Assembly (NCBI GenBank): GCA_964429695.1
Contig: CAYSCS010000079.1
Span: 1,121 to 65,120, forward strand
Source: an uncultured Eubacteriales bacterium
GTDB lineage: Bacteria; Acidobacteriota; Aminicenantia; Aminicenantales; Aminicenantaceae
DNA length: 64,000 nt
Direction of reading: 5' to 3'
The notes beneath the pieces are model-generated. The model was not told the DNA's origin. It saw nothing but the letters and a program-made list of their open reading frames with translations, and did not search any database. Numbering within the stretch: the first letter of the stretch is position 1; every line of letters starts with the position of its first letter. Shown here in pieces: positions 32,466 through 61,931 of this stretch. The translations under genes and the position numbers were made by a program.

Positions 32466-34004
32466 ATGAACATAGGAAATAAAAATATGGAGAACAAAAA
32501 GGCACGAATCAGCTTGCGTTTAGCGGTGAGGGAGAATAGCCTTTTCATGTTGGCTCAGAAGTTCATCACACCTTTCCTTAATTTGTTCATCACTATTTAC
32601 ATCATAAGAAAAGTTTCAGTCGAACATTATGGTATCTATGGAATACTCATTACTTTGATGGATTATTTAATTTTACTCTCTGCATTTGGTCTTCCCAGCA
32701 TCTATCAGAGGTTTTTTCCAGAATTCTTAAGCAATCGCCAGGAAGAGAAAGTATCCATTCTGGTGAAGAAGGGATTGAGGTTGAGTTTTATTTCTTCTCT
32801 TATTTTGACTTTCACTGTTTTCGTTTTTTCCCAGGAGATAGGTGCACTTCTTAAAATTTCAAATTTTAAGAATTACTTCATCATTTGGTTTCTGAGTATC
32901 ATTTTTTATCTTCAAGCTAGACTTTTTGGAACTGTTCTCACCTCACTCTTCTTACATAGGTATTTCGTGTTTTCTGAAATAATTTATGCGTTATTTAGAT
33001 GTCTTGTAATCTTTTGGCTCTTGAAGACAAAGCTGGGCTTGAAAGGTCTTTTGATAGGTGAAGTCGTTTCCTATGCTTTGCTTTTTATGCTTCAATCGAC
33101 TTTTTTTTACCAGAAGTTTGCAAGACACTATCCCTCAGCAGTAAATGAGGAATATGAGAAGAAGCGAATCGCGAGATATGGAGGATTCAGTTATTTAAAC
33201 GAGATGGGGGCAAAAATACTCGATGTTTCTACAGACCTTTTCATAATTTCAGCTTTCTTAGGACCTTTTGCTGCAGGCCTTTATGCTTTTGCGAACAGGG
33301 CTATGGAACTTTTTTCCAAAGCAATGCCAGATAATCTTTTTATGGAGGTTATCAGACCTGCATTCTTCACAAAATATGCGCGAAACTCTGATAAGGAAGA
33401 GATAGAAAGGGTGTTTAATACCTTAACCAAATTCATTGCCTTCTTTTTCTTCCCCCTTGTGGCCGGAATCTTTGTTTTGGGCGATAAGCTCATCATTTAT
33501 GTTTTTGACTCGAAGTATCTTCCATCCCTTAGTGTGCTTTGGATTGTTGCTTCCTTTACAGCCCTAAACTCCTTTCAGTTTCCTCTAGGTCTGATGGTGC
33601 AAGCTGTAGAAAGAGTAGAAGTAAATCTTTATAGCAAGATATTCTCTATTTATAACTTAATAGCCGACCTTCTCGTGGTCAAGAATTTCGGAATCAAAGG
33701 GGTAGCCTTCGTTACAGGAACTGCAATTCTCTTTAAAAATCTTTTTATTTATCTATATGCGCAGAAATATGTTTCATTCTCGTTAGATTTTAAATCAATT
33801 TCGAAGATTCTGCTGAATTCTGGGATGATGTCCATTCCACTTTATTTTATGAGAAGTTTGATTTCTAATATTTTTTCTTTGGGATTTGTAGTTTTGATAG
33901 GAGGGCTTATATATTTTTTCATTTCTTTCTTGAATAAGAGCTTTTCGCTTAGAGAAAGAAAAATAATAAATCAAATTTTACCCAAAGCTGTTTTTGTGTT
34001 TTAA
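32466..34004 (+). CDS. wzx: Wzx-type oligosaccharide flippase
   Basis: About 14 TM segments; E.YGIY, D.FIISAFLG..AAGLYAFA, FGIKGVA motifs of MOP-family flippases. Confidence 0.85.
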   Translation: MNIGNKNMENKKARISLRLAVRENSLFMLAQKFITPFLNLFITIYIIRKVSVEHYGIYGILITLMDYLILLSAFGLPSIYQRFFPEFLSNRQEEKVSILVKKGLRLSFISSLILTFTVFVFSQEIGALLKISNFKNYFIIWFLSIIFYLQARLFGTVLTSLFLHRYFVFSEIIYALFRCLVIFWLLKTKLGLKGLLIGEVVSYALLFMLQSTFFYQKFARHYPSAVNEEYEKKRIARYGGFSYLNEMGAKILDVSTDLFIISAFLGPFAAGLYAFANRAMELFSKAMPDNLFMEVIRPAFFTKYARNSDKEEIERVFNTLTKFIAFFFFPLVAGIFVLGDKLIIYVFDSKYLPSLSVLWIVASFTALNSFQFPLGLMVQAVERVEVNLYSKIFSIYNLIADLLVVKNFGIKGVAFVTGTAILFKNLFIYLYAQKYVSFSLDFKSISKILLNSGMMSIPLYFMRSLISNIFSLGFVVLIGGLIYFFISFLNKSFSLRERKIINQILPKAVFVF

Positions 34005-39757: not shown

Positions 39758-40878
39758 ACATTCTCTGGTTTATAGACAAGGAACTCGACCTTTCTTTCAG
39801 TACCTCGGCAAGGATTGCAGGCGTAAAATATTTAGAGAAGAAGCATTCTGTTTCCCTTATCTCAGGCTATAAAGATAGAGAAAAAGATTTTGAGATAAAA
39901 GGATGCATTTATTTTTTAAAAAAAATAAACCTCCCTTTCTTAAAGACAGCCTCTTTTTATCGGCAACAGTTGAAGTTTATTGATAATTATGAAAGGTTGA
40001 ATGGGGTAGATATAATCCTCCTTAATTCATCAAATTTGTTTTTATTTAGGAAATTACTAAAATTAAAGAAGAGGTATGGATTCAAGGTTATCCTGGATGT
40101 AAGGACGCTGCCTGTGGATTCTAACCCTCTTAAGAGATGGATAAATGATTTCTTTTTGAGGAAGAGCCTCCATCTTGCAGCAAGAAATTTCGAAGGAATA
40201 ACGTATATTACTGAGGAAATGAAAAAATTTTGCCTTTCTAATTATAATCTTCCTGAGCATTCTTTCCAAATCTGGGGTTCTGGAGTGGATCCACAAATAT
40301 TCAAACCCTCAATTTCTCACTTATCCTCACGAGAATATAGGTTGATGTACCATGGTCAGGTTGCGAGGAATAGAGGCTTACAAGGTGTTATCCAAGCGCT
40401 AAATATTTTGGGCGATGAAGAGATATGTTTTCATATTCTTGGTGCAGGGGAAGGACTTGTTGAAATGAAAAAACTGACTAAGAAACTCGGGCTCGAGGGT
40501 AGGGTTCTCTTTCATTCCCCTGTTTCTCTCTCAGAAGTCCCTTATTACATCAATTCAATCCATGCGGGAATACTTCCTTTTCCCCACTGGAGAGGCTGGA
40601 ATACAAGTTCGCCTCTTAAACTCTTTGAATACTTGGCTTGTGGAAAACCGGTAATCGCCACAGATATTCCGGCTCATTCAAATGTACTTAAAGGAAAAGA
40701 TTTTGTTTTTTGGATCTCAGGTTCTTCTCCTGAAAGAATAGCTAGCGCGATAAGAGAGGCCAAGGAAAGAAAGACAGAATACAGAAGATTGGCAGAAGAA
40801 GCAAGAAAGTTTGTAGAGATGAATTTTACCTGGGAGAGACAGGTGAAAAAACTAGAGGAATTTTTGGAAGGTCTTTGA
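39754..40878 (+). CDS. Glycosyltransferase family 4
   Basis: GVD..F.P, YHG..RGL, SPLKLFEYLACGKPVI. Confidence 0.88.
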   Translation: MNILWFIDKELDLSFSTSARIAGVKYLEKKHSVSLISGYKDREKDFEIKGCIYFLKKINLPFLKTASFYRQQLKFIDNYERLNGVDIILLNSSNLFLFRKLLKLKKRYGFKVILDVRTLPVDSNPLKRWINDFFLRKSLHLAARNFEGITYITEEMKKFCLSNYNLPEHSFQIWGSGVDPQIFKPSISHLSSREYRLMYHGQVARNRGLQGVIQALNILGDEEICFHILGAGEGLVEMKKLTKKLGLEGRVLFHSPVSLSEVPYYINSIHAGILPFPHWRGWNTSSPLKLFEYLACGKPVIATDIPAHSNVLKGKDFVFWISGSSPERIASAIREAKERKTEYRRLAEEARKFVEMNFTWERQVKKLEEFLEGL

Positions 40879-42311
40879 TGCAGGTTTCGTTTTCAAAATG
40901 GCAAAATTCTTTGATTTTTCATCTTTTTATTCTTTTCTTTCTCAGCTTTCTTTTAAGCCGGGCCATAGTCAACCGGAATTATAATTTGATGCTCACCGTG
41001 GCAATTGGGTTTATTCTATTTCTTATTCTCAAGTCAAATATTTTATCCATAATCATCATCCTCATTCTTTCATTTTTTGGTAATTGGCTAGAGGCGATTG
41101 GATACCTCCCAGCACAATTCAACTGGCTTTCTGAAATTGTCATCGTGCTTCTTATTATTAAGAGTTTTAGCCTGAAGGCCTTCAAGAAAGAGGAAATTAA
41201 GCTGAAATTTTCTGGAATTTTTATTTTATTTCTGCTTATATCTTTCGTTTCCTATCTTTTGAATTCAATTAGTTTTCTCCATTTTGCACTTTTTTTAAGG
41301 CTTGTTGGGCGCTATTTTTTGCTTTATCTAGCCACAGTGAATCTCGACCTTGACCAGAAAACCATTTTGTTGATCAATAAAATAATCATTTTCCTTTTTC
41401 TCATTCAGATTCCTACGGCATTTATCAAAATGCTCATCTACGGGCAGGGAGAGCAGGCTATTGGGACCTATGCTCTTCATGGAGGAGACCTTTCTACGTG
41501 TATTCCTCTTATGGCAATAAGCTTCTTAATTTCTTTCTATTTCCTTTATAAACCGTCAAGAACATATTTAGTTTTAATTTTTTGTTTTATAGCTTTCGGG
41601 CTTGTTGGAGGAAAAAAGGCCCTAATCCTCTTTGTGCCTATTCTTGTCTTTTTCTTAAGCTTCTTTTTTAAGAAAAGCATGAAAGAAATAATGAGATACT
41701 TCGTCTTGGGGAGTTTGATCATTCTCCTTACGGGTTTTTTCTCGATGAAATTAATAGAAAGATTGAACCCTCAACGAGAAAGAGGCGGAGAAATAAGCTT
41801 GAATTACCTCAAGGATTATTTCCTACGATATGCGACAGAAGGGCAGAGGTCCTATTCCATAGGAAGAATTGCTACTACAAGGAATGTATTTTCAATTTTA
41901 AAGGATGGTGGATTTGAAAGCTTTTTCTTCGGTCTAGGACCAGGAAGTTATATTGAAACGAGATTTAAAGACTTGAAAACTACGCTTAAAGAAAGGGGAG
42001 AGTTGCCCATAATATATGGAATAACAGGCTTCACCTGGCTTGCCTTACAGGTTGGTCTTTTAGGGGCGATTATTTATCTTTTTATTTTCTACCGTATTCT
42101 TGTCGAGTGTCATTCTCATTTTGAAAGAGAGAAGAATGCCTACTGGAAATCTTTTGGCTTGGGAATGGTAGGTTTTTCTTTTGTGATGCTCTTCATCAAC
42201 ATTTTTTATTCTCCTGTGCTAACGGACGACCTTTTTCCGATGATATTCTTTTTACTCGTTGCTTTTTTTCTCAAGGGTAGAAAAAACCAAGAGAATCAAG
42301 GACCTTCCTGA
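40875..42311 (+). CDS. Probable Wzy O-unit polymerase
   Basis: About 12 TM segments, large loop with GR..T, FFGLGPGSY and QVGLLG; located among GTs. Confidence 0.65.
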   Translation: MMQVSFSKWQNSLIFHLFILFFLSFLLSRAIVNRNYNLMLTVAIGFILFLILKSNILSIIIILILSFFGNWLEAIGYLPAQFNWLSEIVIVLLIIKSFSLKAFKKEEIKLKFSGIFILFLLISFVSYLLNSISFLHFALFLRLVGRYFLLYLATVNLDLDQKTILLINKIIIFLFLIQIPTAFIKMLIYGQGEQAIGTYALHGGDLSTCIPLMAISFLISFYFLYKPSRTYLVLIFCFIAFGLVGGKKALILFVPILVFFLSFFFKKSMKEIMRYFVLGSLIILLTGFFSMKLIERLNPQRERGGEISLNYLKDYFLRYATEGQRSYSIGRIATTRNVFSILKDGGFESFFFGLGPGSYIETRFKDLKTTLKERGELPIIYGITGFTWLALQVGLLGAIIYLFIFYRILVECHSHFEREKNAYWKSFGLGMVGFSFVMLFINIFYSPVLTDDLFPMIFFLLVAFFLKGRKNQENQGPS

Positions 42312-49239: not shown

Positions 49240-50403
49240 ATGTATGATGTAATCATCATAGGTGCTGGACCAAGCGGACTTAACTCTGCAAGGAGATTGG
49301 CCAAAAAGGGGCTGGATATTTTAGTTTTAGAAAAAAAGGAAAAAATAGGGAGTCATGTTGTTTGCACTGGAATCGTGAGTGTTGACGCTTTCACTGAATT
49401 TGGCCTTTCTCCAAGTTCCATCTTGTTACCAATAGACAAGATAAAGTGGGTCTCACCAAGAGGTAATGAGCTTTTGTATGAACACCCGCGGCCTTTTGCT
49501 TATGTGGTTGATAGAGAGAAATTTGATAAGAACCTTTATGAAGAAGCGAAGCTTTTGGGAGTGGATGTTATTCTTCACAGTGAAGTTGTGGATATCGTTT
49601 ATAGAGATGGTTATCTAGAAGTGGAGGTTATGAGAGAAAAAAAGTATAAACAAAAATTCCGTGCTCAAATAGTAATAATTGCTTCGGGTATAGATTATCG
49701 TTTGAATAAAAAGCTAGGACTTGGTATCCCGAGAAATTTTCTTTACGCTGTCCAGGCAGAGCTCAATCTCGAAGAGTTTGTTTTTCCCCATGTCTTTGTG
49801 GGAAGGGAGATCGCCAAGGGCGCCTTTGCTTGGGCTGTGCCAATAAAAAATTCTATGGTAAGAATTGGTTTGATGACAGAGGAAAATTCAAAGGAGTGTT
49901 TTAAGAGGCTGCTGAAAAAATATTTTCCGTTTGAGGTAAATAATCTAGATAAAGCCAACATTCAATATAAAACAATTGCCCAAGGAATAGTGTCTCCCAC
50001 ATACGGAAGGAGAGTCTTGAGCGTAGGAGAAGCGGCGGCTCAAGTTAAGACGACGACGGGAGGAGGAATCTATTTCGGTCTTCTTTGTTCAGAAATTGCT
50101 TCTCAGGTTGTGAATAGATTGTTTGAGATTGGTAATTTTGAGAAAAGCGAACTGAGTGAATATGAGAGGTTGTGGAAAAAAGCTATCCAGAAAGAAATAA
50201 TTGTAGGCTATTATACAAGAAAGATTTGCGGGAAATTCAGTGATAATCAGATTGACAAGATGTTTAAAATTGCCCAGAGTGACGGTGTCATTCCTCTAAT
50301 AAAAGAAAGAGGTGATTTTGACTGGCACAGTGGTCTACTTTTAACTTTGATGAAGAGAATCCCTGTTTTTCAAATGATAAAGACCTGTTTCGAAAGAGAA
50401 TAA
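49240..50403 (+). CDS. Geranylgeranyl reductase family FAD oxidoreductase
   Basis: DVIIIGAGPSG, C.G.VS, DRE.FD, GAFAWAVP (PxxYxWxFP-like), VGEAAAQVK..TGGGIY. Confidence 0.85.
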   Translation: MYDVIIIGAGPSGLNSARRLAKKGLDILVLEKKEKIGSHVVCTGIVSVDAFTEFGLSPSSILLPIDKIKWVSPRGNELLYEHPRPFAYVVDREKFDKNLYEEAKLLGVDVILHSEVVDIVYRDGYLEVEVMREKKYKQKFRAQIVIIASGIDYRLNKKLGLGIPRNFLYAVQAELNLEEFVFPHVFVGREIAKGAFAWAVPIKNSMVRIGLMTEENSKECFKRLLKKYFPFEVNNLDKANIQYKTIAQGIVSPTYGRRVLSVGEAAAQVKTTTGGGIYFGLLCSEIASQVVNRLFEIGNFEKSELSEYERLWKKAIQKEIIVGYYTRKICGKFSDNQIDKMFKIAQSDGVIPLIKERGDFDWHSGLLLTLMKRIPVFQMIKTCFERE

Positions 50404-50421
50404 AAAGAGTAAATCCCCAAG

Positions 50422-51690
50422 ATGAAAAAAAGTAAATTAAGTATTTTCGTCTTTATGTTTTTATCTTTTATGACTTCAAGTTACATTTGTGCGCAAAGTT
50501 ATCGAGCATTTAGAGCCGATGTAAGCCAAATTTTAGAAAGGGCAAGATGGCAAATAGGCCCTTTTCGTGTTCATCCAGGCATAGAACTTAGAGACATTGG
50601 ATACGATGATAATGTATATTTAGAGCCAGAGGATAGAGAGCCAGTCTCTGACTATACTGGCACATTTTCCGGCTATCTCAACGTTTACATGCTTTACAAG
50701 AATTGGCTCATATTTTCACTCTCAGAAAATCCTGAGTATGTTTATTTTATATCCGAAAAAAATCAGAGGGCATTCAATAACAGCTTAAGTCCTGGTCTGA
50801 GGGTTCTTTTGTTCCAGCGCTTTGTTCTAAGCGGAAATTATAGTTTTCGAAGAGCTAAAAGAAGAGCATCAAGTGAATTTGAAATCCCTGCCACCGAAGA
50901 GTTTGAAGCTTATCACGGTAGTTTTTTTTATGAAAGCCCCAGATTGACTTCCGTAGGTATTTCCTGGTCATCTGAAAAAATAAATTATGAAGATATAATT
51001 CCTCCTGGGTGGGACATTGAGCTTTCTAAGGCTTTGAATCGGACCACAAAGACAATTCATTTTGAAATTTATTATATGGTCTTCTCTCAGAGTTTTTTAT
51101 TTTTTTCCCTGGGTTATTCAGGCTTTGAATTTGAAAATGTTGAATCGAGATGGAGAGATTCTTATTCTTATGACGCTCTGACCGGGATTCGATTTCCGCT
51201 TTTGGGAAGAGCAAGAGGAACCATTTCTTTGGGCTACAGGAGGCTAGTCCCGAGACAAAAGTCTCTTCAGAGGTTTACAGGAATGATCGGGAATACAAGT
51301 TTTGATTTTAGAACTGGCAGATTTGCTTTTCGTCTTCGATATAATAGGGATTTTCAGTTTTCATTCGCCAGAGGAAACGCTTATTTTGTGGAAAATAATT
51401 TTGGAGTGGGATTATCTTTTTATCTAAGTCATTTTCTTAGATTAGATTATGATTTTAATTTGGGAATAAATAATTATCCTGAGCTTTTCTCTCTCATTAG
51501 ACCTGATGGAAGGTTAGTTGAAATAAAGAGAAGGGACACGTTCGAAATCCATGCTTCAGGCTTAGTTTTCAGGGTATTCAGGAATATAGGCATCGGTATG
51601 GTATTAAATTTCTGGCAAAGAGAATCTAACTATCTGCTTGAACCGAGAGAGAGATGGTTTTTGGGAGGCCGCATTGGCTATGAATTTTGA
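50422..51690 (+). CDS. Outer-membrane beta-barrel (Wzp/EpsX/VpsM-like polysaccharide export barrel)
   Basis: Signal peptide, GYDDNV motif, alternating aromatic strands, BAM-type C-terminal IGYEF; adjacent to wzc. Confidence 0.75.
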   Translation: MKKSKLSIFVFMFLSFMTSSYICAQSYRAFRADVSQILERARWQIGPFRVHPGIELRDIGYDDNVYLEPEDREPVSDYTGTFSGYLNVYMLYKNWLIFSLSENPEYVYFISEKNQRAFNNSLSPGLRVLLFQRFVLSGNYSFRRAKRRASSEFEIPATEEFEAYHGSFFYESPRLTSVGISWSSEKINYEDIIPPGWDIELSKALNRTTKTIHFEIYYMVFSQSFLFFSLGYSGFEFENVESRWRDSYSYDALTGIRFPLLGRARGTISLGYRRLVPRQKSLQRFTGMIGNTSFDFRTGRFAFRLRYNRDFQFSFARGNAYFVENNFGVGLSFYLSHFLRLDYDFNLGINNYPELFSLIRPDGRLVEIKRRDTFEIHASGLVFRVFRNIGIGMVLNFWQRESNYLLEPRERWFLGGRIGYEF

Positions 51691-51725
51691 ATTTAACTCA
51701 ATTTATTTAATATATTTAGATAGGG

Positions 51726-54005
51726 ATGAAAATGAATGAGCTACAGAAGAAGCATGAAATTGATTTGATCCAATATTGGGGAATGATTATCAAGCGAAAA
51801 TGGGTCATTCTAACCTTCACGGGAATGCTTGTCTTTTTTACAGGAATTTTTTCTTTTCTCGCTACACCCATCTATAAATCAACAGTGACATTATTGATAG
51901 AAGAAGAATCCTCCAAAATGTTGAGCATTGATGAGGCTTTTGGGTTCCAGTCTTCTGTAATTCAAGATTTGAGATTCTTTAATACCCAGCTTAAGCTTTT
52001 GAAAAGCAAATCGCTGGCAGAGAGAGTTGCAAAGAGAATGAACCTTCTAGCAAGAAAGGAATTGAGTTCAGGAAATTCCGGGAAGAGCTTGACCGGATTG
52101 ATCAAGGATTTCGCTACCCTAAAATGGCTGAAATCAAGAAAGGCAGATGAGGGAAGAGAGTTAAAACCTGTTCCTAGGGCGGATGCATATTCAAGTATTG
52201 CAGAATCCATAAGGTATAAAATTGAAGTAAGACCCCTCCGAGACACTAAATTGGTTGAGGTAAGCTATTCTTCCCCTGATCCAATACTGGCTGCAGACCT
52301 AATCAACACCCTTGCGGAGGAGTTTATTGATTTCTCGATAGAGAAACGCTTTGAGACCACTCAACAGGCCTCAAACTTTTTAAACGAGCAGATTTCAAAT
52401 CTTCAGGAGGAATTGGTTGCCAAACAGAAGGAACTCCAGAGATACGGTCAAGAAAAGGAGATTTTCTTTTTGAGTGATGCCGAAAGTACAGCCGTAAATA
52501 AATTTGCAAGTTTGAACGCTGCCTATACTCAAGCTCAGATTAACAGAATCAACGCAGAAGCAACTTATCGGGAGCTTAGAGATCTTGATGTAGAATCCCT
52601 GCCTCAATTTGTAAATAACCCTGTGATTCAACAGTTCAAGACTGAATATTCGAGAATGAAAAATGATTATGAGGAGAAGAGTAAAATTTTTAAACCAGAT
52701 TATCCTGAGATGATTCAGCTCAGGGCAAAGCTGGAGAGCATGAAAGAAGAGCTCAAGAACGAAATCAGGAAAGCGGTGGAGGCTGCAGAGACAGAATATA
52801 GGTCAGCCTTGAATAGAGAACAATCCTTATTGAGATTGCTCGAACAGCAAAGGAGTGATGTGGTGCGCATGGACTCCAATGCAATCCTATATAACAGCCT
52901 GAAGATTGAAGTGGAGAATATGAGGAGGCTTCTAAATTCTCTTGTAGAGAGGAGGAATGAGACTTTGGTCTCAGCGAGACTGGAGGGGTTTAAAACAAGC
53001 AATATTACCATTATCGACAGGGCAGAGGTACCTAAAAAGCCAGTTTCCCCCAAGAAAAAGTTGAATTTAATCTTGGCTTTTTTGATTGGATTGTTTGGGG
53101 GAGTGGGACTCTGTTTTGTTCTTGAATATTTAGATAATACTATCAAAGGTCCAGAAGATGTAGAAAAACTGGTGGGTTTACCTTCGTTGGGAATAATTCC
53201 CTACCTCCCTTCTGATGAAGAAGGAGAGAGAAAGACAGGTAGTAAACATTATGGCTATTCCTATGGAGAAAAAAGCGAGAAGAAAGATGAGGCCGTAGAA
53301 GTGAAGAGAATTGAACTTGTGAATCATCTCTACCCCAACCTTTCTATCTCTGAAGATTATAAAACAGTGAGAACTTCCATCCTCCTCTCTCATGCTGATA
53401 ACCCTCCCAAGACTTTGCTTTTTACAAGCTCATTACCCCGAGAAGGAAAAACTGTAACAGTGGTTAACATGGCTGTCTCTTTCTCTCAACTGGATGAAAA
53501 GGTTCTCGTAGTGGATGCAGACTTGAGGAAACCTAGGCTTCATAGAATATTTAAAGCCAGAAACACGGGAGGATTGAGTAGTTATCTTACAGGAAAGCTT
53601 TCTCTTAAAGATATAATTTTAAAAACTTCAATCCCTAACATCTGGCTCCTTCCAAGTGGACCAATACCTCCAAACCCTGCGGAGCTTCTAAATTCGAAGA
53701 AAATGAAAGAAATGCTCGAGGAAATAAAAAAAGGATACGATATTATTCTTATCGACACTCCTCCTGTTCTTGCCGTGATTGATACTCTGATTGTCTCAAA
53801 TCTTGTGGATTGTATAGTCTTTATCATTAAAGCAGGGAAGACGACTAAAAAACCATTCAGGAACTCAATCGAGGAGCTAAGAAGGGCAAAGTCCAAAATT
53901 ATTGGAGTTGTCTTCAATGAATTAAAGGTTAAGAAGGGAGATTACTATTTCATGAATTATTATCGATATCATCAATACAACCATTATGGAAATGAGGAGG
54001 GATGA
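51726..54005 (+). CDS. wzc: Wzc polysaccharide co-polymerase / BY-kinase
   Basis: Two TM segments flanking a coiled coil, PVSPKK, Walker A SLPREGKT, DADLRKP, IDTPP, C-terminal Tyr cluster. Confidence 0.93.
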   Translation: MKMNELQKKHEIDLIQYWGMIIKRKWVILTFTGMLVFFTGIFSFLATPIYKSTVTLLIEEESSKMLSIDEAFGFQSSVIQDLRFFNTQLKLLKSKSLAERVAKRMNLLARKELSSGNSGKSLTGLIKDFATLKWLKSRKADEGRELKPVPRADAYSSIAESIRYKIEVRPLRDTKLVEVSYSSPDPILAADLINTLAEEFIDFSIEKRFETTQQASNFLNEQISNLQEELVAKQKELQRYGQEKEIFFLSDAESTAVNKFASLNAAYTQAQINRINAEATYRELRDLDVESLPQFVNNPVIQQFKTEYSRMKNDYEEKSKIFKPDYPEMIQLRAKLESMKEELKNEIRKAVEAAETEYRSALNREQSLLRLLEQQRSDVVRMDSNAILYNSLKIEVENMRRLLNSLVERRNETLVSARLEGFKTSNITIIDRAEVPKKPVSPKKKLNLILAFLIGLFGGVGLCFVLEYLDNTIKGPEDVEKLVGLPSLGIIPYLPSDEEGERKTGSKHYGYSYGEKSEKKDEAVEVKRIELVNHLYPNLSISEDYKTVRTSILLSHADNPPKTLLFTSSLPREGKTVTVVNMAVSFSQLDEKVLVVDADLRKPRLHRIFKARNTGGLSSYLTGKLSLKDIILKTSIPNIWLLPSGPIPPNPAELLNSKKMKEMLEEIKKGYDIILIDTPPVLAVIDTLIVSNLVDCIVFIIKAGKTTKKPFRNSIEELRRAKSKIIGVVFNELKVKKGDYYFMNYYRYHQYNHYGNEEG

Positions 54006-54112
54006 ATAAAATAGAAAAATTTTTATATTGATTAGGGAAAGAAGGATTAAGAAAAGAAGGAGCTTGAAGAGGGAAGGAGCAGAGAAGGGAAGAATCAGAA
54101 TGAGCAACTTCA

Positions 54113-55531
54113 ATGGAAAAAGTAGGCTTAAAAAGAGATAGAATCATCTACTCAATCATCGAATTTGGCATATTGGGGTTACTTGTTTTCAGCCCATTGC
54201 CTGCAGGCTCAGTGCCTGAGTGGTCGGTGCTCGTGATTGAGTTAACCGCGATTATTCTTCTTTTATTCTTTTTTTTAATAAAAGAGAAACCATTACCAGA
54301 TAAAATCTTCCCTCAATTCATGAAATGGCCCAAATATTTTTTCTCTTCCTTTTTAATCCTTATTTTTCTCCAGATAATGCCCCTTCCTACGTTCCTAGTG
54401 AAAATAATTTCTCCTAGTGTTTATTCCTTCAAAGCATCATTTTCTCCAGCATCTTCAGTGACAAAATTTATGACCCTTTCGATTATACCTTCCCATACCC
54501 TAAAACTGGGACTTGAGATAATTTCATACTTCATAATCGGTTATCTCATTTTGAAAACCACTTCTAAAAAGACTCAGATCTTGAGAATCATTTATGTTTC
54601 AATTGCGATGGGAATGTTTGAGGCATTTTACGGGTTATTTGAGCTTTATAATAAAAATCCACGAATTTTATTCTATAGAAAAATTTATCATTTAGATTCT
54701 GTTACAGGAACCTTCGTCAATCGCAATCATTTTTCAGGTTACTTGGAGATGATTATTCCCCTTGTGATTGGAATCATTTTAGCAAGAATCTATATTTTTT
54801 CATTTCCGGGATTAAATTGGAGAGAAAAGGTTCATTTAATTTCTGAAAAGGGGATATCGAAAAACATTGTTTTGAGTTGCGGCGTTATCCTGATGTCTAT
54901 TTCTGTGTTGTTCTCAAAGTCTCGTTCCGGAGTTTTCATTCTAATCTTGTGCTTTATTCTTTTCTTTGGGCTGATTAGCGTCTATTTTGGAGTTTCTACT
55001 TCCCAGAAAAGATGGATAAGGAATTTTATTTTGATTTTATTTTTATTCATATTAATCATTTCTATTTACACTGGAATTGACGCTACAATTGAGAGATTTG
55101 CATTGGATAATCTCCTTAAAGAGGGGAGACCTGTTTTTTGGGGAAATTCTCTAAGGATATTTTCCGAGTATCCGATTTTTGGGACAGGACTAGGAACCTT
55201 TCCTTCCCTTTATCCTGATATTATGGAAGATGGAAAGCTGATAAGAATATATCATGCCCACAATGACTTCCTGGAATACTTATGTGAAACAGGAATATTG
55301 GGATTTATTTTTCTCTTCGGGGGAGTTTTCATTATGCTGATAAAAAATTTCATCCTTTGGCAGAAGAGAAGACATCCTGAAGTTAAAGGGCTTGCTCTTG
55401 GAGGGATAATTGCCAGCTTGAGTATTCTGATTCACAGCCTGACTGATTTCAATCTTCATATACCCGCTAATATACTTCTTTTCTCTATTATCCTGTCTCT
55501 CACTACAGTTATTGTTCATTATAAAAAATAA
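54113..55531 (+). CDS. O-antigen ligase / O-oligosaccharyltransferase family (Wzy_C)
   Basis: GTFVNRNHFSGYL, SKSRSG, R..FW, PIFGTGLGTF, HAHNDFLE..ETG.LG, HSLTDFNLHIPAN. Confidence 0.85.
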   Translation: MEKVGLKRDRIIYSIIEFGILGLLVFSPLPAGSVPEWSVLVIELTAIILLLFFFLIKEKPLPDKIFPQFMKWPKYFFSSFLILIFLQIMPLPTFLVKIISPSVYSFKASFSPASSVTKFMTLSIIPSHTLKLGLEIISYFIIGYLILKTTSKKTQILRIIYVSIAMGMFEAFYGLFELYNKNPRILFYRKIYHLDSVTGTFVNRNHFSGYLEMIIPLVIGIILARIYIFSFPGLNWREKVHLISEKGISKNIVLSCGVILMSISVLFSKSRSGVFILILCFILFFGLISVYFGVSTSQKRWIRNFILILFLFILIISIYTGIDATIERFALDNLLKEGRPVFWGNSLRIFSEYPIFGTGLGTFPSLYPDIMEDGKLIRIYHAHNDFLEYLCETGILGFIFLFGGVFIMLIKNFILWQKRRHPEVKGLALGGIIASLSILIHSLTDFNLHIPANILLFSIILSLTTVIVHYKK

Positions 55532-55597
55532 AGTTAAAAGAAAGAATAAAAAACTAGAGGCAAAAAGGAAAATAAATTTTTAAAGCTAAGAAATAAG

Positions 55598-57283
55598 ATG
55601 AGAAGAGGGAAAAAGATTTTATGGGTAGTGTTCATTTCTTTTATACTTTTTCTAGATGTCTTAATTTGTATAAATATTTACTTTTTTCGTAGCGCAGAAA
55701 AAGAGAAAAACGCGGAAAAAAAAATAAGAATTCTGGAGAAGGCCAATAAATTTTACCCCCTAAACGACCTAATTTATTGGGAGATTGGAAAGAATTACTA
55801 TGAATTAGGCTTAGAGAAACTTGAAGATAGGATAAGAGGCGAACAGTATTTTTCTAAATCTATTCATAATTTTAGAAAGTCAATAAAGCTTAATCCTGCA
55901 TCTTATTTTGTGCACTTCAATCTTGCCCATGCTTTGTTTTATAGAAGCATCCTAAATCCCTCTTTAAAGGATGATTTCTTGGAAGAATATAAAAAAACGA
56001 TTCTTCTTGCCGGACAAAATGATGAGATATATTACGAAGTAGGAAAATTTTTGTTTTCACAATGGCCAAAGCTTTCTGAAGACGATAGGAAGTTTACCTT
56101 AGATGTATGTAAAAGAATCGACTTCCTGAGGGAAAGAGAAAGGCTTCGCACCTTTCTGAATATTTGGGATTTGAACATTAAGGATTATAAAGTTATTAGG
56201 AAAATCATTCCCGAAAGCCCTCAAGTTTACCGGGAGTACGCGCAATTTCTTGGGGAGAAAGCACTTTCTCTCAAGGAGAGACAGGAAATTCTTGCTCTTG
56301 CAGATTTCCTCGAGTTTGAAAAGGCTAAAAAAGATTTTCAATTGGGGGAAAAAGAATTCTACTACTATCGATATAAAAAGGCAGGGGCTTATTTTGATTC
56401 GTGTCTTAAGAGGTTGGAAAGAATAAAATTTTATCAAAAGCTTACTCATCAAAGCTTAATCTCTTTGGCAGAATTCAATGAGATTCGCAAGTTCTCTCTT
56501 CTTAATCTTGCTAAATGCCGCATTGAAGAAGGAGATGATTTTCAAGGTGTTGAAAACCTTTTGAGAAGATTTCTCTGGCATGAAGAAAAGGTTGGGGAGA
56601 TTAATAAGCTTGAAGATTATCTTATCAGGCGTGGATTGTTAAACGAAGATTTGACCTCAGACTTTGAAGACTTAAATAAACTATCTTTCAAGCTTTTCCT
56701 TTATTTCAAGCAAAGTCGATATACAGATATCCTCAAAGCAGGGAATATTTTTCAGAGGAGCTTTTACCTGATTTCCGAAGATAGAAAAGGGAAGATTGTT
56801 GAGGTTTTGACTTATTTTGGTGATTCTTGTCAAAAGATGGATAGACTCTTCGATGCAGAAGAATTTTATAAAAAAGCTCTTGAGCTTGAGCCAGACAACC
56901 TTGAAGTATTATTGAGGATTCGTAAAACCTATGAGAGATTGAATGAAGAGATGAAAATAAAAGAAGTCGAGAGAAGAATAGAAAAAATTCTTACCCCTAA
57001 AGAAGCATTTTCGGGAGATTCTATGATATACAGAGGGAAGGTGTTTAATTTTAGGCTGATGCTTGATGGTCGCAGGGGAACCCTGAATTTGCAATTCAAA
57101 GAAGACTGTTGTAGAGATATGACTCCTGTGATAACCGTTTTCTTCAATGGAGAAATAATTTGGGAGGATAGCCTCAAGGCACCTTTTCTTTCAGTCTCTT
57201 TCGATTCAAATATAGGCATGAATACTGTGGAGGTTGAATCTTTGGGATTTCCAGTTTCACTTTTGAAATTGACTTATGAATGA
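55598..57283 (+). CDS. Membrane-anchored TPR protein
   Basis: N-terminal TM; TPR-like IKLNPASYFVHFNLA and AEEFYKKALELEPDNLEVL; small beta-rich C-terminal domain. Confidence 0.7.
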   Translation: MRRGKKILWVVFISFILFLDVLICINIYFFRSAEKEKNAEKKIRILEKANKFYPLNDLIYWEIGKNYYELGLEKLEDRIRGEQYFSKSIHNFRKSIKLNPASYFVHFNLAHALFYRSILNPSLKDDFLEEYKKTILLAGQNDEIYYEVGKFLFSQWPKLSEDDRKFTLDVCKRIDFLRERERLRTFLNIWDLNIKDYKVIRKIIPESPQVYREYAQFLGEKALSLKERQEILALADFLEFEKAKKDFQLGEKEFYYYRYKKAGAYFDSCLKRLERIKFYQKLTHQSLISLAEFNEIRKFSLLNLAKCRIEEGDDFQGVENLLRRFLWHEEKVGEINKLEDYLIRRGLLNEDLTSDFEDLNKLSFKLFLYFKQSRYTDILKAGNIFQRSFYLISEDRKGKIVEVLTYFGDSCQKMDRLFDAEEFYKKALELEPDNLEVLLRIRKTYERLNEEMKIKEVERRIEKILTPKEAFSGDSMIYRGKVFNFRLMLDGRRGTLNLQFKEDCCRDMTPVITVFFNGEIIWEDSLKAPFLSVSFDSNIGMNTVEVESLGFPVSLLKLTYE

Positions 57284-57316
57284 ACTCAGTCTCTATTTTT
57301 TAAATAAAATTTTATT

Positions 57317-57958
57317 ATGAATTTATTCTGGGAAATGAGAAAAGTAACCTTTTATTTTTTTAAAAGGCTCTTTGATATGATAGTTTCCTCTCTGGGATTT
57401 TGTATTTCTCTTCCCTTATGGATTATTTTTTGTGCGCTAATCTGGATTGAAGATCAGGGTCCTATTTTTTATACGCAGGAGCGAGTAGGTAAAGATGGAA
57501 AGATCTTTCGTGCCCTGAAATTTCGCTCGATGATAAAGAATGCCGAGAATGGGCTTCCTGTTCAGGCTATAGAAAATGACCCTAGGATCACAAGAATAGG
57601 GAGATTTTTAAGGGCGACCGCAATGGACGAATTGCCTCAATTGATTAACATCTTTAAAGGAGAGATGAGTTTTGTTGGCCCAAGGGCTTTAAGGCCAAAG
57701 GAAAGAGAGGTCTTCGGCAATTCTGAAGTGACAGAACTTAGAAATATTTTGGGATACAAAGAGAGGCATAGAGTAAGACCAGGGCTTACTGGGTATGCTC
57801 AAGTTTATCTTCCTCCCGATGCTCCTAGCCTTGAAAAATTTAAATATGATTTAATTTACATTGAAAAAATGAGCTTTCTTTTAGATTTGAAGCTCATCTT
57901 GTTTTCTTTCTGGATTTCATTCAGAGGGAAATGGCAGTCGAGAAGAAAAAAAATATAG
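57317..57958 (+). CDS. Priming phosphoglycosyltransferase (bacterial sugar transferase, short form)
   Basis: KRLFD, GPIFY.QERVG, KFRSM, DPRITRIG, DELPQL, MSFVGPR, RPGLTGYAQV. Confidence 0.92.
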   Translation: MNLFWEMRKVTFYFFKRLFDMIVSSLGFCISLPLWIIFCALIWIEDQGPIFYTQERVGKDGKIFRALKFRSMIKNAENGLPVQAIENDPRITRIGRFLRATAMDELPQLINIFKGEMSFVGPRALRPKEREVFGNSEVTELRNILGYKERHRVRPGLTGYAQVYLPPDAPSLEKFKYDLIYIEKMSFLLDLKLILFSFWISFRGKWQSRRKKI

Positions 57959-58074
57959 ATTAAATTATGACTCATTAAAAATAAAGGCTCAAGTGATTGA
58001 AGAGAGAGTGTAGTTTAGAGCTTTAAAATGAGACGAGAAGGCTTAAGATATGATTAAATCAAGGAGATTTTTTC

Positions 58075-58917
58075 ATGATTAGGATTCCAGTTACTATATT
58101 TATGATAATTTTCTTCAATCCCTTCTTTTTTTCTCTCCATCAGGAAGCCCCATCAACTGAATATAGAATAGGGCCAAAGGACCTTTTAGACATCAATGTC
58201 TTTGGTGTCGGGGAGCTAAATGTAACTGTCAGAGTCTCAGAAGAAGGGAGAATAACTCTTCCCCTTCTAGGTGAGGTTGAGGTAGAAGGTTTAACTAAGA
58301 GCGAGGTGGAAAGAAAAATTAGTTCACTGCTTGAGGAGAAATATCTCCAGAATCCTCAAGTTACGATCTTCATTCGTGAGTATCAGAGTAAAAGGGTATC
58401 TGTTTTGGGTGCGGTGAGGAGCCCGGGGACATATGAACTCTTGGGCCGACAGACCCTGCTTCAAATCATTTCCCAGGCAGGCGGTTTAACCCCTGAAGCA
58501 GGAGAAGAAATTATAATTATTCGCCAGCTTTCTAATGGAAATAATACCTCACTAAAGATTTCAATTGAAGATTTAATTTTAAAGGGAGATGCAAAGCTAA
58601 ATATTCCTCTTCAACCTAATGATATTATTAATATCCCCATTGATCAGGTAGTAAGAATTTATATCTTCGGTCAGGTTAGGAATCCAGGAGCTCTGGAAGT
58701 GAGAAGGTCCAATATTCCAACCTTGCTCAGAGCAATTGCTCAAGCAGGGGGGTTTGCTGAGAGAGCCTCAAAAGGAAGTGTCATAATCCGCAGAAGGGCT
58801 GAAGATGGGAAGGAGATTGAGATAAGGGTCAATGTAAAGGATATCCTGAAGGGGAAGAAAAAAGATATTCAACTCCAGGAGAATGATGTAATTTTCGTTC
58901 CTGAAACAATTTTTTGA
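58075..58917 (+). CDS. wza: Wza/OPX polysaccharide export protein (Poly_export plus SLBB)
   Basis: YRIGPKDLL, G.ITLPLLGEV.V.GLT, GAVRSPG, GQVRNPG, AGG repeats; no lipobox Cys. Confidence 0.88.
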   Translation: MIRIPVTIFMIIFFNPFFFSLHQEAPSTEYRIGPKDLLDINVFGVGELNVTVRVSEEGRITLPLLGEVEVEGLTKSEVERKISSLLEEKYLQNPQVTIFIREYQSKRVSVLGAVRSPGTYELLGRQTLLQIISQAGGLTPEAGEEIIIIRQLSNGNNTSLKISIEDLILKGDAKLNIPLQPNDIINIPIDQVVRIYIFGQVRNPGALEVRRSNIPTLLRAIAQAGGFAERASKGSVIIRRRAEDGKEIEIRVNVKDILKGKKKDIQLQENDVIFVPETIF

Positions 58918-58970
58918 TTTACAATGGTCTTTCAAAGTAAGATAAAGTGAGCATAGATTTAGCATAAATT

Positions 58971-59783
58971 ATGAAAATGATTGATTTACATTCTCATATT
59001 CTTCCTGGAGTGGATGACGGAGCAAGGTCCATTAAAGAATCTCTTGAAATGGCAAGAGTGGCATTTAGCGACCGGATTCGTACCATAGTTGCCACTCCTC
59101 ATCTTTTTAGGAGAAATTATCCTCAGACAAACTTTGGAATTATCCATAAAAAAATTGATGAACTTAGAGAAGCACTGGCTGAGAATAATATTGAAATTGA
59201 AATCTTAAGAGGAGCTGAGGTGCATGTTTCTCATAACATAATCGATGAGATTAAGGTTCATAGGGAAGATTTACTCCTCAATAAGGGTTCCTATTTATTC
59301 GTTGAATTTCCTTCTGAACATGTTTTTTCTGGAGTTAAAGATGTTTTTTTTAAAATCATGAACGAAGGAATTACCCCTATTATTGCTCATCCCGAAAGGA
59401 ACTCTGATTTCTCTCGAAGGCCATATTTGCTCTATGAATTGATTCAAATGGGAGCACTTTCTCAAGTGAATAGCGGAAGCTTCTCAGGAATCTATGGAAG
59501 AGAAGCAGAGCTAAGCGTTTTTCGTTTTCTTAAATTAAATCTGATTCATTTAATTGCAAGCGATGCTCACTCAGTTAATCGGATCCCTCCCCGGCTTTCC
59601 AAGGCAAGGGAAAGAGTAAGGTTAGTTTCAGGAGAGAAGATAGCCTGGTCGCTCGTCAAAGATAATCCACAGGCCATACTGGATAATAGAGATATCCCTT
59701 TTTTCCCTGACCCCGTAGATCCCAGAGAAAATGAGAAATCTTTGAAAATAAGGCTTCCGCATTTTTTTAGGAGAAGAGTTTAG
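58971..59783 (+). CDS. CpsB/CapC-type PHP tyrosine phosphatase
   Basis: IDLHSHILPGVDDGA, ATPH, AHPERN, ASDAH. Confidence 0.92.
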   Translation: MKMIDLHSHILPGVDDGARSIKESLEMARVAFSDRIRTIVATPHLFRRNYPQTNFGIIHKKIDELREALAENNIEIEILRGAEVHVSHNIIDEIKVHREDLLLNKGSYLFVEFPSEHVFSGVKDVFFKIMNEGITPIIAHPERNSDFSRRPYLLYELIQMGALSQVNSGSFSGIYGREAELSVFRFLKLNLIHLIASDAHSVNRIPPRLSKARERVRLVSGEKIAWSLVKDNPQAILDNRDIPFFPDPVDPRENEKSLKIRLPHFFRRRV

Positions 59784-59809
59784 TCAGAATAAACTTAGAG
59801 TGTAAAATT

Positions 59810-60867
59810 GGTCGTTGGCTAATCCATGGTATTAAGGTTGGGAAGAGTTTCTGGTAGAGGTCGGTAAGTTTATCCAGCTGCATCATTGGAAAAAAAGCCA
59901 CCAGCTTTGAACACTCACGTTCCATCCTCAACTTCTTGAAGGGTGTCATTCCCAGGGTCGAGTGATAGCGTAAGGTATTATACATGAATTGCCACCGCAG
60001 GGCTCTGAAGTAAAAATCTTTCAAGTCAGCGCAACGCTCTATCTGCGGGATGTAAAACTCATTATCGTCAGTCTGATGCGAGCGTTCGACAAAAGCCTGA
60101 TACTCTTTCTTGCCCTTGGGAATGTGCACCAGCTCCGCCTGAAGTGGGGAGAACACGTTGCCGGTTCAGGTACTCTAACTTATCCACCGATTTACCCCCA
60201 AACTCCTCGCCGTTATCCGTCTGAAGGGTTATCTTATGCTCCAGGCCAAAACTTCGCAGAAAGTAAATCAGACTCAGCATGAAGAGAAGTCCGTTAGTAA
60301 AGGTCTTCTCAAAGGAGTAGGCGATAAACCTCAGCCTGGTTTTGACATCGATGGCTGTCCACTAATAGGCAGGGATGTTTATCCTCTTAGCCCAGCGCAG
60401 AGTCTGCTTAGAGAGGGTAGTGGCATCATACACCTCCTTCAGGTCAACCTGAAAGTGCTGTAAGGGATAAAGGGGCTCAAAATCATAGAAGCGGTTGCGC
60501 CTTCTGTATCTCGACCGCTTATACTTACCGCTGAGCTTATAACGGCGTAGGACATAACGGACCGTGGATGGCTTTATCTCGACCCCACGTTCCCGCAGTA
60601 TCCGGGCTAACCGCTCTCTCCCATAGCCGCTCTTCTTCCTCTCCGCTATAACCATCGCCTCCACCGCCACCGATCCTTCAGCCCTTCTTCCCCTGCCTCC
60701 TGCCATCGCCTTACCACCTTCCGCACCGTCTTCCTAGTGCTCCGATACAACCTCGATACCTCCGAGATACTACCCATCTCCTCATAGGCCTTTACTATCG
60801 CTTTCTTGGCTAAAATAGCTGAGCCCTTGTAAATCTCATAATAAATGGGGTATATATATTCTCTCAT
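59810..60867 (-). pseudogene. IS481-family (rve) transposase pseudogene
   Basis: HTH (RKTVRKVVRRWQEAGEEGLKDR), GRERLA, FQVDLK, Y*WTAIDVKTR, QTDNGEEF, VERSHQTDDNEFY, YN..RYH. Frameshift near 60670, TAG at 60364-60362, frameshift near 60158. Confidence 0.85.
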
Positions 60868-61054
60868 TTGGGCTTGGGTTTCCTCCTTCCATTTAAAAGT
60901 TTAAACAAAACTTTTAAGGGAGGAAGCCCTGCTTTTTCAAGGACTAATTTGATAAAGGCCTTGGCTTCTTCAGCCCCGCCACCAACTGCCGGACTATCCC
61001 TACGCCTCTTCCATATACTCCCCTTAACCTGGATACAATGTCCTAACCCAAAAG
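59810..61054 (-). mobile_element. Degenerate IS481-like element
   Basis: Flanked by AAAATT at 59804-59809 and 61055-61060 (candidate 6-bp TSD); imperfect IR 59815-59839 versus 61026-61050 (17/25 matches); contains a fragmented integrase-core transposase. Confidence 0.7.
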
Positions 61055-61064
61055 AAAATTTGCC

Positions 61065-61093
61065 TTGACTTCCTATTAAAATGGTCTTATTAT
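61065..61093 (+). promoter_or_regulatory. Sigma70-like promoter of the 61125 gene
   Basis: TTGACT(61065-61070)-17 bp-TATTAT(61088-61093), followed by SD GAGGAGG. Confidence 0.65.
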
Positions 61094-61124
61094 TTAAATT
61101 AGATTAAAGGCAGAGGAGGATTCA

Positions 61125-61931
61125 ATGTTTTTCAAGTCCAAAAAGTCCATTTACGGAGCAGGGCTTGCTTTAATTTTGATGTTTCTTTTGGGCTCACTAA
61201 AGGCAGAGACTATTGAAAAAGGAAATATCATTGGTTTTATCTATACAAAAGATGGGACTACCCCTTTAGAGGGCGCCATTATTAGGGTTGAGAACATCTC
61301 AACAAGATCTACTTTTGAAAGTACTATCTCAGATAAAAATGGAATATTTAAGATTGAAGGAATAGAACAAGGTGTCTATGTTTTGGGTGTAAAGACCTCT
61401 GAAGGAGAATTTAACCTTGAGGATGTAATAGGATTAAAAATAAGATCCAACGAAACTGCTAAGATGTCTCTTTCAGTAAATCCTTATGATAAAGAAGTTG
61501 CTTCTGCAGTTCAAGAAGTATACGTTGACCAGGAAATTTCTGGCGAATCATTAATCGGCACTGTGATTGATTATAATGAAGCCACAAGAACAGCTGTAGT
61601 CTCCATCATCAAAGGATTGTTGAGAATCAACGATAGAATCCATGCTAAGGGACAGAAGACTGATTTCTATCAAAATGTTAGGGCGATAAGAAAAGAAGGA
61701 GCGCTCGTACAGATCGTCCTGGCAGGTCAGGTTGCGACAATTGAAGTCAAGAAAAAAGTTGAAAAAAATGATTTAATTTATTCGGCAAAAAAAAGAGGTA
61801 TCTTGCCCCTCTTCATAGCTCCTATAGGGGGTGTGACCCTGCTTGCAGCAAGTGCAGCTGTTTTGCATGGCACAATAAACATTGACGAAGAACCAGATCA
61901 AATTTCTCCTTTCAAGAAGGAGCTGCCTTAA
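61125..61931 (+). CDS. Secreted carboxypeptidase-regulatory-like domain protein with C-terminal hydrophobic tail
   Basis: Signal peptide (..SLKA/ET), GNIIGFIY..DG.TPLEGA...SDKNG.F.I.GI..G.Y beta-sandwich motif, second beta domain, tail KKRG-hydrophobic-DEEPDQISPFK. Confidence 0.7.
   Translation: MFFKSKKSIYGAGLALILMFLLGSLKAETIEKGNIIGFIYTKDGTTPLEGAIIRVENISTRSTFESTISDKNGIFKIEGIEQGVYVLGVKTSEGEFNLEDVIGLKIRSNETAKMSLSVNPYDKEVASAVQEVYVDQEISGESLIGTVIDYNEATRTAVVSIIKGLLRINDRIHAKGQKTDFYQNVRAIRKEGALVQIVLAGQVATIEVKKKVEKNDLIYSAKKRGILPLFIAPIGGVTLLAASAAVLHGTINIDEEPDQISPFKKELP

Follow-up and report, generated by a model that had tools for sequence, protein, structure and literature searches.

The question raised by the locus described here is how a polysaccharide assembled on a lipid carrier is finally parted from that carrier and kept at the cell surface. 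For the Wzy-dependent capsules and exopolysaccharides of Gram-negative cells both release from the lipid carrier and retention are unsettled, and a 2025 review, in its portion on retention that depends on lipopolysaccharide (LPS), reports conflicting data (PMC12220298). The locus lies in a stretch of 64,000 nucleotides (the window, meaning the whole stretch of DNA that was analysed) from contig CAYSCS010000079.1 of an uncultured sediment bacterium of the Aminicenantaceae, whose genome of 3.1 Mb is 93% complete. A single polysaccharide locus occupies about 27.7 to 61.9 kb of the window, with all its genes on the + strand and a variable part that precedes an export block. Within an Aminicenantes locus of the Wzx/Wzy type, the block at 49240-61931 makes up the conserved core that assembles and exports the polysaccharide. 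Besides Wzc, Wza and a CpsB-type phosphatase, it encodes a Wzy_C protein (P0002), a TPR protein (P0003), a flavoprotein of the geranylgeranyl-reductase (GGR) family and a secreted protein with a conserved C-terminal tail (P0001, the tail protein). A sequence-only reading of this DNA had proposed that P0002 ligates the exported glycan onto the tail protein, giving a protein-tethered glycocalyx made without exosortase.

The comparisons reported below suggest that P0002 is probably not the repeat-unit polymerase of its locus. It may be a terminal transferase of the ligase type that works with the tail protein, a tentative assignment whose chances are put a little below even. The narrower claim that the tail protein is the actual glycan acceptor appears somewhat unlikely. 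Of the earlier proposal, the conserved module, the co-occurrence of its parts, the second Wzy_C (which turned out to have a WaaL fold) and the lack of exosortase all stood, while the C-terminal serine on which glycosylation was to take place did not.

The Wzy_C protein, the tail protein and their conservation

P0002 passes the gathering cut-off of the Wzy_C family by a wide span (Table 1) and carries the motif HAHND at residues 381-385. An alignment of its homologues contains 48 invariant columns, including H381-A-H-N-D385 and R271. Compared with the O-antigen ligase WaaL (7TPJ), the AlphaFold2 model of P0002 (pLDDT 80.6) matches along the entire chain, with 375 residues aligned at Z 23.4 and rmsd 4.2; FtsW and RodA, which are SEDS proteins, reach Z 12-13. 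Foldseek placed another WaaL structure, 7TPG, at the top (E 7.9e-6). Profile comparison also retrieved 7TPG (E 2.5e-13), together with the solved "oligosaccharyltransferase" chain 9RMK (E 8e-9), which is the sole sequence link of P0002 to oligosaccharyltransferases; HAHND was aligned to an identical HAHND in the former and to HsHN in the latter. The second Wzy_C protein with a ligase-type motif is thus confirmed. The match of the Wzy_C profile to E. coli WaaL was weak (E 0.01), hhalign gave no alignment to the E. coli O16 polymerase WbbH (E 0.5), and nothing usable was obtained against P0004, the upstream candidate polymerase. Foldseek and a wider structure search listed WaaL and SEDS proteins and no O-oligosaccharyltransferase or Wzy chain, of which the libraries may hold none. 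NCBIfam returned no family for P0002, the beta-barrel protein or P0004, even at E 10.

The distribution of these genes was followed in 40 related genomes from nine families of one order, which are kin, so that the counts are not independent. Wzy_C was found in 22 of them (P0002 as query, E <1e-60). The TPR protein (E <=1e-20) occurs in 21 genomes, all within those 22, and in 0/18 of the Wzy_C-negative ones; the GGR orthologue (E <=1e-40) occurs in 14, again all Wzy_C-positive and with 0/18 among the negatives. The tail protein (E <1e-20) is present in 23 genomes, 21 of them within the 22 that carry Wzy_C. The exceptions are G031, which has only a Wzy_C fragment on a 2-kb contig, and G017 and G029, where a tail protein is accompanied by at most a weak Wzy_C match.

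Twenty loci were fetched and the window proteins mapped onto them, which separated 17 loci of a main type from three of a paralogous type. The former have the order transferase-GGR-barrel-Wza-Wzc-(CpsB)-Wzy_C-TPR-tail, with Wzy_C at 42-59% identity and the tail gene directly after the TPR gene in 12 of the 17; in the others, L034 and L040 stop at a contig edge after TPR, and L026, L029 and L031 show no tail gene in the stretch read. The paralogous loci are arranged as barrel-Wza-Wzc-CpsB-tail (one to three copies)-Wzy_C, with Wzy_C at 30-33% identity and a tail gene in all three. An alignment-based profile scan, restricted to one genome per species, retained 80 further loci (a single-protein scan had given one weak locus); where Wzy_C was at least 38% identical, a tail gene was present in 13 of 15 loci, the remaining two being short contigs, and five loci of lower identity titled Aminicenantes also carry it. 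Absence of the tail protein from the locus in relatives is what the sequence-only reading had named as evidence against itself, and what was found is co-occurrence at the level of both genomes and adjacent genes. A literature search returned no paper on such a cassette in Aminicenantes, an unnamed tail motif being beyond the reach of a text search.

Five records with a full Aminicenantes-type cassette (L046, L047, L048, L051 and L058; Wzy_C 39-58%) are titled Promethearchaeota, Clostridiales or Eubacteriales and are probably mislabelled or mis-binned. In three loci (L033:13989-15173, L035:3591-6393, L041:14288-17117) the tail gene is followed by a gene for an NTP_transf_5 "uncharacterised nucleotidyltransferase", after which L035 and L041 continue with an ABC ATPase and an ABC-2 permease. 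Open reading frames similar in size to these are present in L036; the tail gene of the window has no such followers.

Over the nine families P0002 homologues remain 42-59% identical (tblastn), and the adjacent glycosyltransferases differ. The strongest evidence on the role of P0002 is genomic: the glycosyltransferase regions beside the cassette were read in five relatives, and four of them hold a Polysacc_synt flippase together with a different, divergent Wzy_C (404 residues in G039, 529 in G028, 794 in G036 and 431 in G040). Because these variable regions have a flippase and a Wzy_C of their own, it is unlikely that the conserved Wzy_C polymerises the repeat units. The pattern of one Wzy per locus, varying with the repeat unit, is not the one seen for P0002; being conserved, and having a variable Wzy_C or Wzy-like protein beside the flippase, it therefore behaves as a fixed part of the export core and not as a serotype-specific polymerase.

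P0002 is not the sole Wzy_C of its genome either. A further one, separate from it, is encoded on contig C18 between a Glyco_transf_9 heptosyltransferase and a PfkB kinase and is likely the LPS ligase (WaaL candidate) of the host, and two more adjoin flippases in other loci. In contrast with this arrangement, the P0002 gene is unlinked to core-oligosaccharide genes, none of which is found in the cassette, in agreement with the earlier claim that lipid A-core genes are lacking from the window. In a FastTree phylogeny of 100 rows (of which L053 and L058 are mis-extracted, over-long open reading frames, to be disregarded) the Aminicenantes cassette Wzy_C proteins form one group of 40 rows with support 96, and those of other phyla group by taxonomy. 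E. coli WaaL and the three other Wzy_C proteins of the host fall outside the cassette group on long branches (3.3 for WaaL), where their placement is unsafe.

The TPR protein next to Wzy_C is membrane-anchored as proposed, with one N-terminal hydrophobic anchor. According to excerpts of PMC2943079, a Wzy_C domain with a fused or adjacent TPR part is found in protein O-oligosaccharyltransferases such as WsfB, PglL and WsaA/WsaB, among them enzymes for S-layer proteins, and also in the pilin-specific TfpO/PilO type; P0002 and P0003 show the same association. In genome G021 the two proteins are joined in one 1071-residue open reading frame (L027:7674-10889, -), in which the membrane anchor of the TPR protein is kept. 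The likeness to TfpO/PilO extends to a candidate acceptor gene that adjoins the enzyme gene, as pilA adjoins tfpO, and to a serine near the C-terminus of the candidate acceptor. In contrast to the systems of PglL/TfpO-type enzymes, here the putative acceptor serine lies 4-8 residues from the end and behind a hydrophobic segment, and a full Wzc/Wza export machine is present.

Long Wzy_C open reading frames whose C-terminal part looks TPR-like by eye occur also in other phyla (L095, 800 residues; L083, 723 residues), and L077 holds one of 950 residues with an extension.

The tail protein ends in the stretch KKRGILPLFIAPIGGVTLLAASAAVLHGTINIDEEPDQISPFKKELP, laid out as PxG, a weak hydrophobic stretch, an acidic spacer and SPFKK. 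Where the hydrophobic segment begins, P233 and G235 are invariant in an alignment of 32 rows. The end had been given as ..ISPFK, and is actually ...ISPFKKELP; its serine is neither C-terminal nor invariant in the family. In a profile search, 1.84 billion representatives yielded 128 proteins at E <=1e-30; pooled with earlier matches these make 141 small proteins. The tail profile is matched by 117 of them, and in 89 the tail runs to the C-terminus. Among these 89, Ser or Thr is found in the last ten residues of 88 (weak evidence, about 70% being expected by chance), [ST][PA] in the last ten of 78 and Ser-Pro in that of 65, and Lys or Arg stands within the last four residues of 86. The body that precedes the tail varies, from Ig only (about 175 residues) or Ig plus barrel (about 268 residues) to a double barrel or an AMIN-like N-terminal extension, and the paralogue cassettes contain up to three diverged tandem tail genes. 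Varied bodies and tandem copies with a constant tail look like the pattern of substrates that share a recognition signal. In the host genome a profile of the last 48 residues found one open reading frame among 20,788 (E 7.7e-18; runner-up 0.31); therefore the tail is not a many-substrate signal like PEP-CTERM.

Some features of these proteins may be recorded in their own right. The small beta-barrel of P0001 resembles the C-terminal domain of U32 peptidases and domain II of IF2 (4HE6, TM-score 0.80 by target), and a standalone homologue of about 85-105 residues, lacking a signal peptide, is encoded in 41/41 genomes (in the host at G000:C109:18747-19013; L006:1513-1770, +). Two family members from the representative library, P0214 and P0278, have an N-terminal extension before the Ig domain that resembles, by eye, the peptidoglycan-binding AMIN domain, the tail end being present in P0214 only. 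Beside related Wza-Wzc-Wzy_C cassettes of other phyla, four secreted proteins (L095 at about 5360-5858, +; L122:4052-4615, +; L091:5441-6211, +; L097:63-1175, -) terminate in a hydrophobic stretch rich in Ala and Gly that is followed by a poly-Gly spacer and x-Ser-Pro-x; GGGGGGQSSVSPFKP and GGGGGGGGGTVSPTR are two of these ends. L095 is titled Nitrospirae, L122 Proteobacteria and L097 Terriglobia, and for L091 no phylum is given; the bodies of the four proteins are homologous neither to the tail protein nor to each other. Under a loose rule, which asks for a hydrophobic stretch and then xSP within the final 8 residues, the loci of other phyla showed no enrichment (5/2765 open reading frames vs 14/5640 in the host genome), so these four proteins stay anecdotal; a strict [ST]P[FVIYL][KR] rule gave 11/3191 vs 13/6089.

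No exosortase (PF09721) was found in the host genome or in any of the 40 relatives; its absence had been claimed for the window. PEP-CTERM genes had likewise been said to be lacking from the window, and the tail protein matches no such model; elsewhere in the genome, contig C65 carries one PEP-CTERM-like open reading frame, the single match there. This encodes a secreted protein of 241 residues whose PEP-CTERM domain scores above the Pfam cut-off (G000:C65:4113-4181; L126:1462-2187, -; VPEPATLILLGSGLLGLLALKKK). The locus nevertheless resembles the XrtA/PEP-CTERM exopolysaccharide loci, reportedly described by Haft and colleagues, in its below-cut-off matches to models of the EpsB transferase, the EpsE exporter, the EpsF/EpsG chain-length and kinase proteins and the PrsT TPR protein, in its AsnB-type amidotransferase and deacetylase, and in its secreted protein with a motif-hydrophobic-charged C-terminus. 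It differs from them in that no exosortase was found in the 41 genomes and that each cassette has one target instead of many. TIGR03097, the model of the exosortase-associated ligase, did not match P0002, and in five other-phyla genomes with related cassettes nothing scored up to its cut-off.

Readings of the cassette weighed

Several observations weigh against a ligase that works with the tail protein. The paralogue cassettes have a tail gene and no separate TPR match. No tail homologue was found in 60 loci that are not of the Aminicenantes type, most of them from Nitrospirota, Thermodesulfobacteriota, Terriglobia and Proteobacteria, and many of which keep Wza-Wzc-Wzy_C with Wzy_C at 27-31% identity; the Wzy_C family therefore needs no tail protein in general. 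Should the C-terminal hydrophobic segment span the membrane, this segment and the signal peptide together would leave the Ser-Pro end in the cytoplasm, beyond the reach of a periplasmic active site, and residues 225-268 of the tail are modelled at pLDDT <50 (AlphaFold2). In genome G027 only a MurJ-like flippase and no second Wzy_C were found in the 20 kb read. Of the four Wzy_C proteins encoded in variable regions, two have H-x-H-N as well, and this motif does not separate ligases from polymerases. As for the upstream polymerase presumed in the sequence-only reading, P0004 is polytopic, and no family match was obtained for it in Pfam or NCBIfam. Its Wzy-like character is a lead from a language-model search, in which 11 of 30 ESM Atlas matches fell in clusters with Wzy_C on 21% of their members; a homologue 40% identical to P0004 is encoded in the variable region of G011.

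The main rival is an ordinary Wzx/Wzy locus. In it, a conserved backbone would be polymerised by the conserved Wzy_C, alone or as one of two polymerases; the TPR protein would be a periplasmic scaffold as in synthase-dependent systems; and the tail protein would be a lineage-specific accessory anchored in the inner membrane, whose Ig-like domain might, for instance, bind glycan. Wzy_C proteins within Wzx/Wzy loci are conventionally read as polymerases, as in the Myxococcus loci treated in excerpts of PMC7484181 and PMC9601211, and the first of these sets the default here too. TPR scaffolds for the passage of polysaccharide are likewise established in the relevant parts of PMC9601211 and PMC12220298. 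The Ig-like CarboxypepD_reg fold is common among carbohydrate-handling proteins, judging from the Foldseek matches, and the initiating transferase is also conserved (54-67%), so that conservation of the polymerase could reflect that of the reducing-end chemistry. G027, moreover, shows no other Wzy_C in the 20 kb read. Against it stand the further Wzy_C or Wzy-like gene beside the flippase in four of five relatives and in the window, and a Wzy_C tree that tracks taxonomy, with no swapping along with glycosyltransferase sets. Furthermore, the tandem diverged tail genes, with variable N-terminal domains and a constant tail, look like substrates and not like fixed subunits. This rival as a whole is judged unlikely.

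The tail could alternatively be a transmembrane signalling device, in which a periplasmic Ig-like sensor is continued by a cytoplasmic Ser-Pro-Phe-Lys-Lys end that docks on the kinase domain of Wzc or on CpsB and tunes export. By standard topology rules a signal peptide plus a C-terminal hydrophobic segment does place the domains in the periplasm and the end in the cytoplasm, the frequent Lys or Arg in the last four residues (86/89) fits the positive-inside rule, and the AMIN-like extensions of two family members fit a periplasmic body. Wzc and CpsB are encoded in both cassette types, and in the paralogous one the tail gene is flanked by those for CpsB and Wzy_C. The hydrophobic segment is weak, however, with a median apparent insertion energy of +2.4 and 9% of values below 0, against -1.6 for the first transmembrane segment of Wzc (on a scale entered from recall); in the main type the tail gene adjoins Wzy_C/TPR and not Wzc, and up to three tandem copies would be odd for a regulator. 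A signalling role appears improbable.

Least probable is a reading of the tail as a novel sorting signal akin to PEP-CTERM/LPXTG, cleaved by another enzyme that attaches the protein to envelope or polymer with no direct involvement of Wzy_C: the tripartite layout with its invariant P233 and G235, the constant tail after varied domains, the resemblance of the locus to exosortase-linked exopolysaccharide loci (sub-cut-off Eps and PrsT matches, AsnB) and the lack of exosortase in 41 genomes would suit it, but the host genome has one such protein, the conserved genes of the cassette include none for a protease or transpeptidase, the extreme C-terminus is conserved, which is unusual for anchors that are cleaved off, and no curated C-terminal sorting model, nor any other Pfam or NCBIfam model, matches the tail.

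The locus and its surroundings

Table 1. Annotated features of the window, in window coordinates. Scores are followed by the family cut-off where one is given.
Feature	Position	Strand	Families and scores
Bacterial alpha-2-macroglobulin gene (1668 residues), then PBP1C-type bifunctional penicillin-binding protein gene	92-7344	+	
Second mobile element, directly upstream of the polysaccharide locus	24239-26286	+	DUF6788 protein, DDE_Tnp_1 transposase
Variable biosynthetic part: GT4/GT2 glycosyltransferases, deacetylase, methyltransferase, AsnB-type amidotransferase, fused dehydrogenase, heparinase II/III-like	27711-49051	+	
634-residue protein inside the polysaccharide locus	29795-31699	+	no Pfam family at E <=0.001
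Wzx-type flippase	32466-34004	+	Polysacc_synt_3, Polysacc_synt
P0004, polytopic, Wzy-like, 478 residues, candidate repeat-unit polymerase	40875-42311	+	
P0006, GGR-family FAD flavoprotein	49240-50403	+	TIGR02032, 195.3 bits vs 158.8
P0005, outer-membrane beta-barrel candidate, signal peptide	50422-51690	+	BBP2_2 PF10082, 23.9 bits vs 23.7, borderline
Wzc, polysaccharide co-polymerase fused to BY-kinase	51726-54005	+	Wzz, GNVR, AAA_31; TIGR01007, 202 bits
P0002, conserved WaaL-fold Wzy_C, ligase-like	54113-55531	+	PF04932, 70.1 bits vs 31.7
P0003, TPR protein, N-terminal anchor, C-terminal beta-rich part	55598-57283	+	TPR families
Bac_transf, small polyprenyl-phosphate phosphoglycosyl transferase, 213 residues	57317-57958	+	PF02397, 206 bits
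Short Wza (OPX), 280 residues, lacking the C-terminal outer-membrane helix domain	58075-58917	+	Poly_export, two SLBB; TIGR03028/TIGR03027-like
CpsB-type PHP tyrosine phosphatase	58971-59783	+	PF19567, 193 bits
Decayed insertion sequence, transposase in four fragments, ends approximate	59810-61090	-	HTH, rve_3
P0001, tail protein: signal peptide, Ig-like domain, small beta-barrel, C-terminal tail (about 226-268)	61125-61931	+	CarboxypepD_reg

The + strand open reading frames of the export block and their families, as listed from the sequence alone, were recovered by open reading frame prediction with Pfam and NCBIfam scans. One gene had been left out of that list, the phosphoglycosyl transferase of the Bac_transf family at 57317-57958. 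The further suggestion that the distal block is separately promoted finds no echo in the promoter and terminator scan, which stayed at chance level (30 promoter-like sites vs 31.2 expected).

The CpsB and tail genes are separated by an insertion sequence (IS) whose transposase is broken into four minus-strand fragments (HTH_28/HTH_32, rve_3). A second copy of this element on contig C92 is 68.5% identical, aligned over 59818-61087, and a partial copy lies on contig C4. That the tail gene would directly follow the phosphatase gene once the IS is removed was right, since the close relative L047, with the order Wzc-Wzy_C-TPR-Wza-CpsB-tail, has the two genes 71 bp apart and no IS between them. The AAAATT target duplication proposed together with that junction (59804-59809 and 61055-61060) is unconfirmed, because homology to the other IS copy continues past the second repeat to 61087.

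The Bac_transf gene adjoins the GGR gene in relatives (54-67% identity), and the BBP2_2 barrel and the short Wza are also syntenic there. An OPX protein that lacks the outer-membrane helix domain and stands beside a beta-barrel, the combination that marks composite translocons, is thus present here, with the barrel at its cut-off score; it is a translocon type described for Myxococcus and many other bacteria in excerpts of PMC9601211. The Myxococcus EpsY/EpsX-type Wzx/Wzy system of the same source is alike in its short Wza beside a barrel gene, its Wzc-type co-polymerase, Wzx and Wzy_C, and differs from the present locus, which has a second, order-wide conserved Wzy_C with TPR, a GGR-family gene and a dedicated tail protein. 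P0006 passes its family cut-off clearly (Table 1), and modified polyprenyl carriers are discussed for archaea in a portion of PMC10821996.

Outside these subjects, the window contains a few further features. The 2-kb stretch around the upstream DDE_Tnp_1 element has a GC content of 0.485, vs about 0.37-0.40 in its flanks. Genes for alpha-2-macroglobulin and PBP1C, such as those at the beginning of the window, are a known pairing.

Proposed pathway and its bearing on polysaccharide retention

In the pathway that would follow from the ligase reading, repeat units would be begun on polyprenyl phosphate by the small phosphoglycosyl transferase, and the adjacent GGR-family reductase may alter the polyprenyl carrier. 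The variable glycosyltransferases would complete the units, Wzx would flip them and the locus-specific Wzy-like protein would join them into polymer, with Wzc and CpsB controlling chain growth, and the short Wza and the beta-barrel would form a composite outer-membrane translocon. The conserved Wzy_C, with its periplasmic TPR partner, would then act as the terminal glycan transferase, or ligase, that moves the lipid-linked glycan to a fixed acceptor. The Ig-domain tail protein would be the dedicated partner of this enzyme, most likely as glycan acceptor or membrane anchor and otherwise as an obligatory adaptor. The strictest version, in which polysaccharide is joined to protein independently of exosortase, with Wzy_C and its TPR arm moving a Wzy-made glycan, on a carrier possibly reduced by the GGR protein, to the Ig-domain protein by means of a new class of C-terminal signal, must be regarded as doubtful.

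If true, this would be a diderm whose Wzy-dependent capsule is anchored covalently to protein, and the poly-Gly/x-Ser-Pro-x ends seen in four loci of other phyla would hint at a wider principle. The tail proteins, 89 diverse members with a conserved C-terminal signature and no matching Pfam or NCBIfam model, make up a protein family. The frequent presence of a GGR-family reductase beside the initiating transferase suggests in addition a modified polyprenyl carrier in bacteria. For the question posed at the outset, a second WaaL-fold enzyme tied to the Wzc/Wza core, to a TPR protein and to a tail protein present once per cassette offers a concrete candidate for the missing step by which the polysaccharide is released from its lipid carrier and retained.

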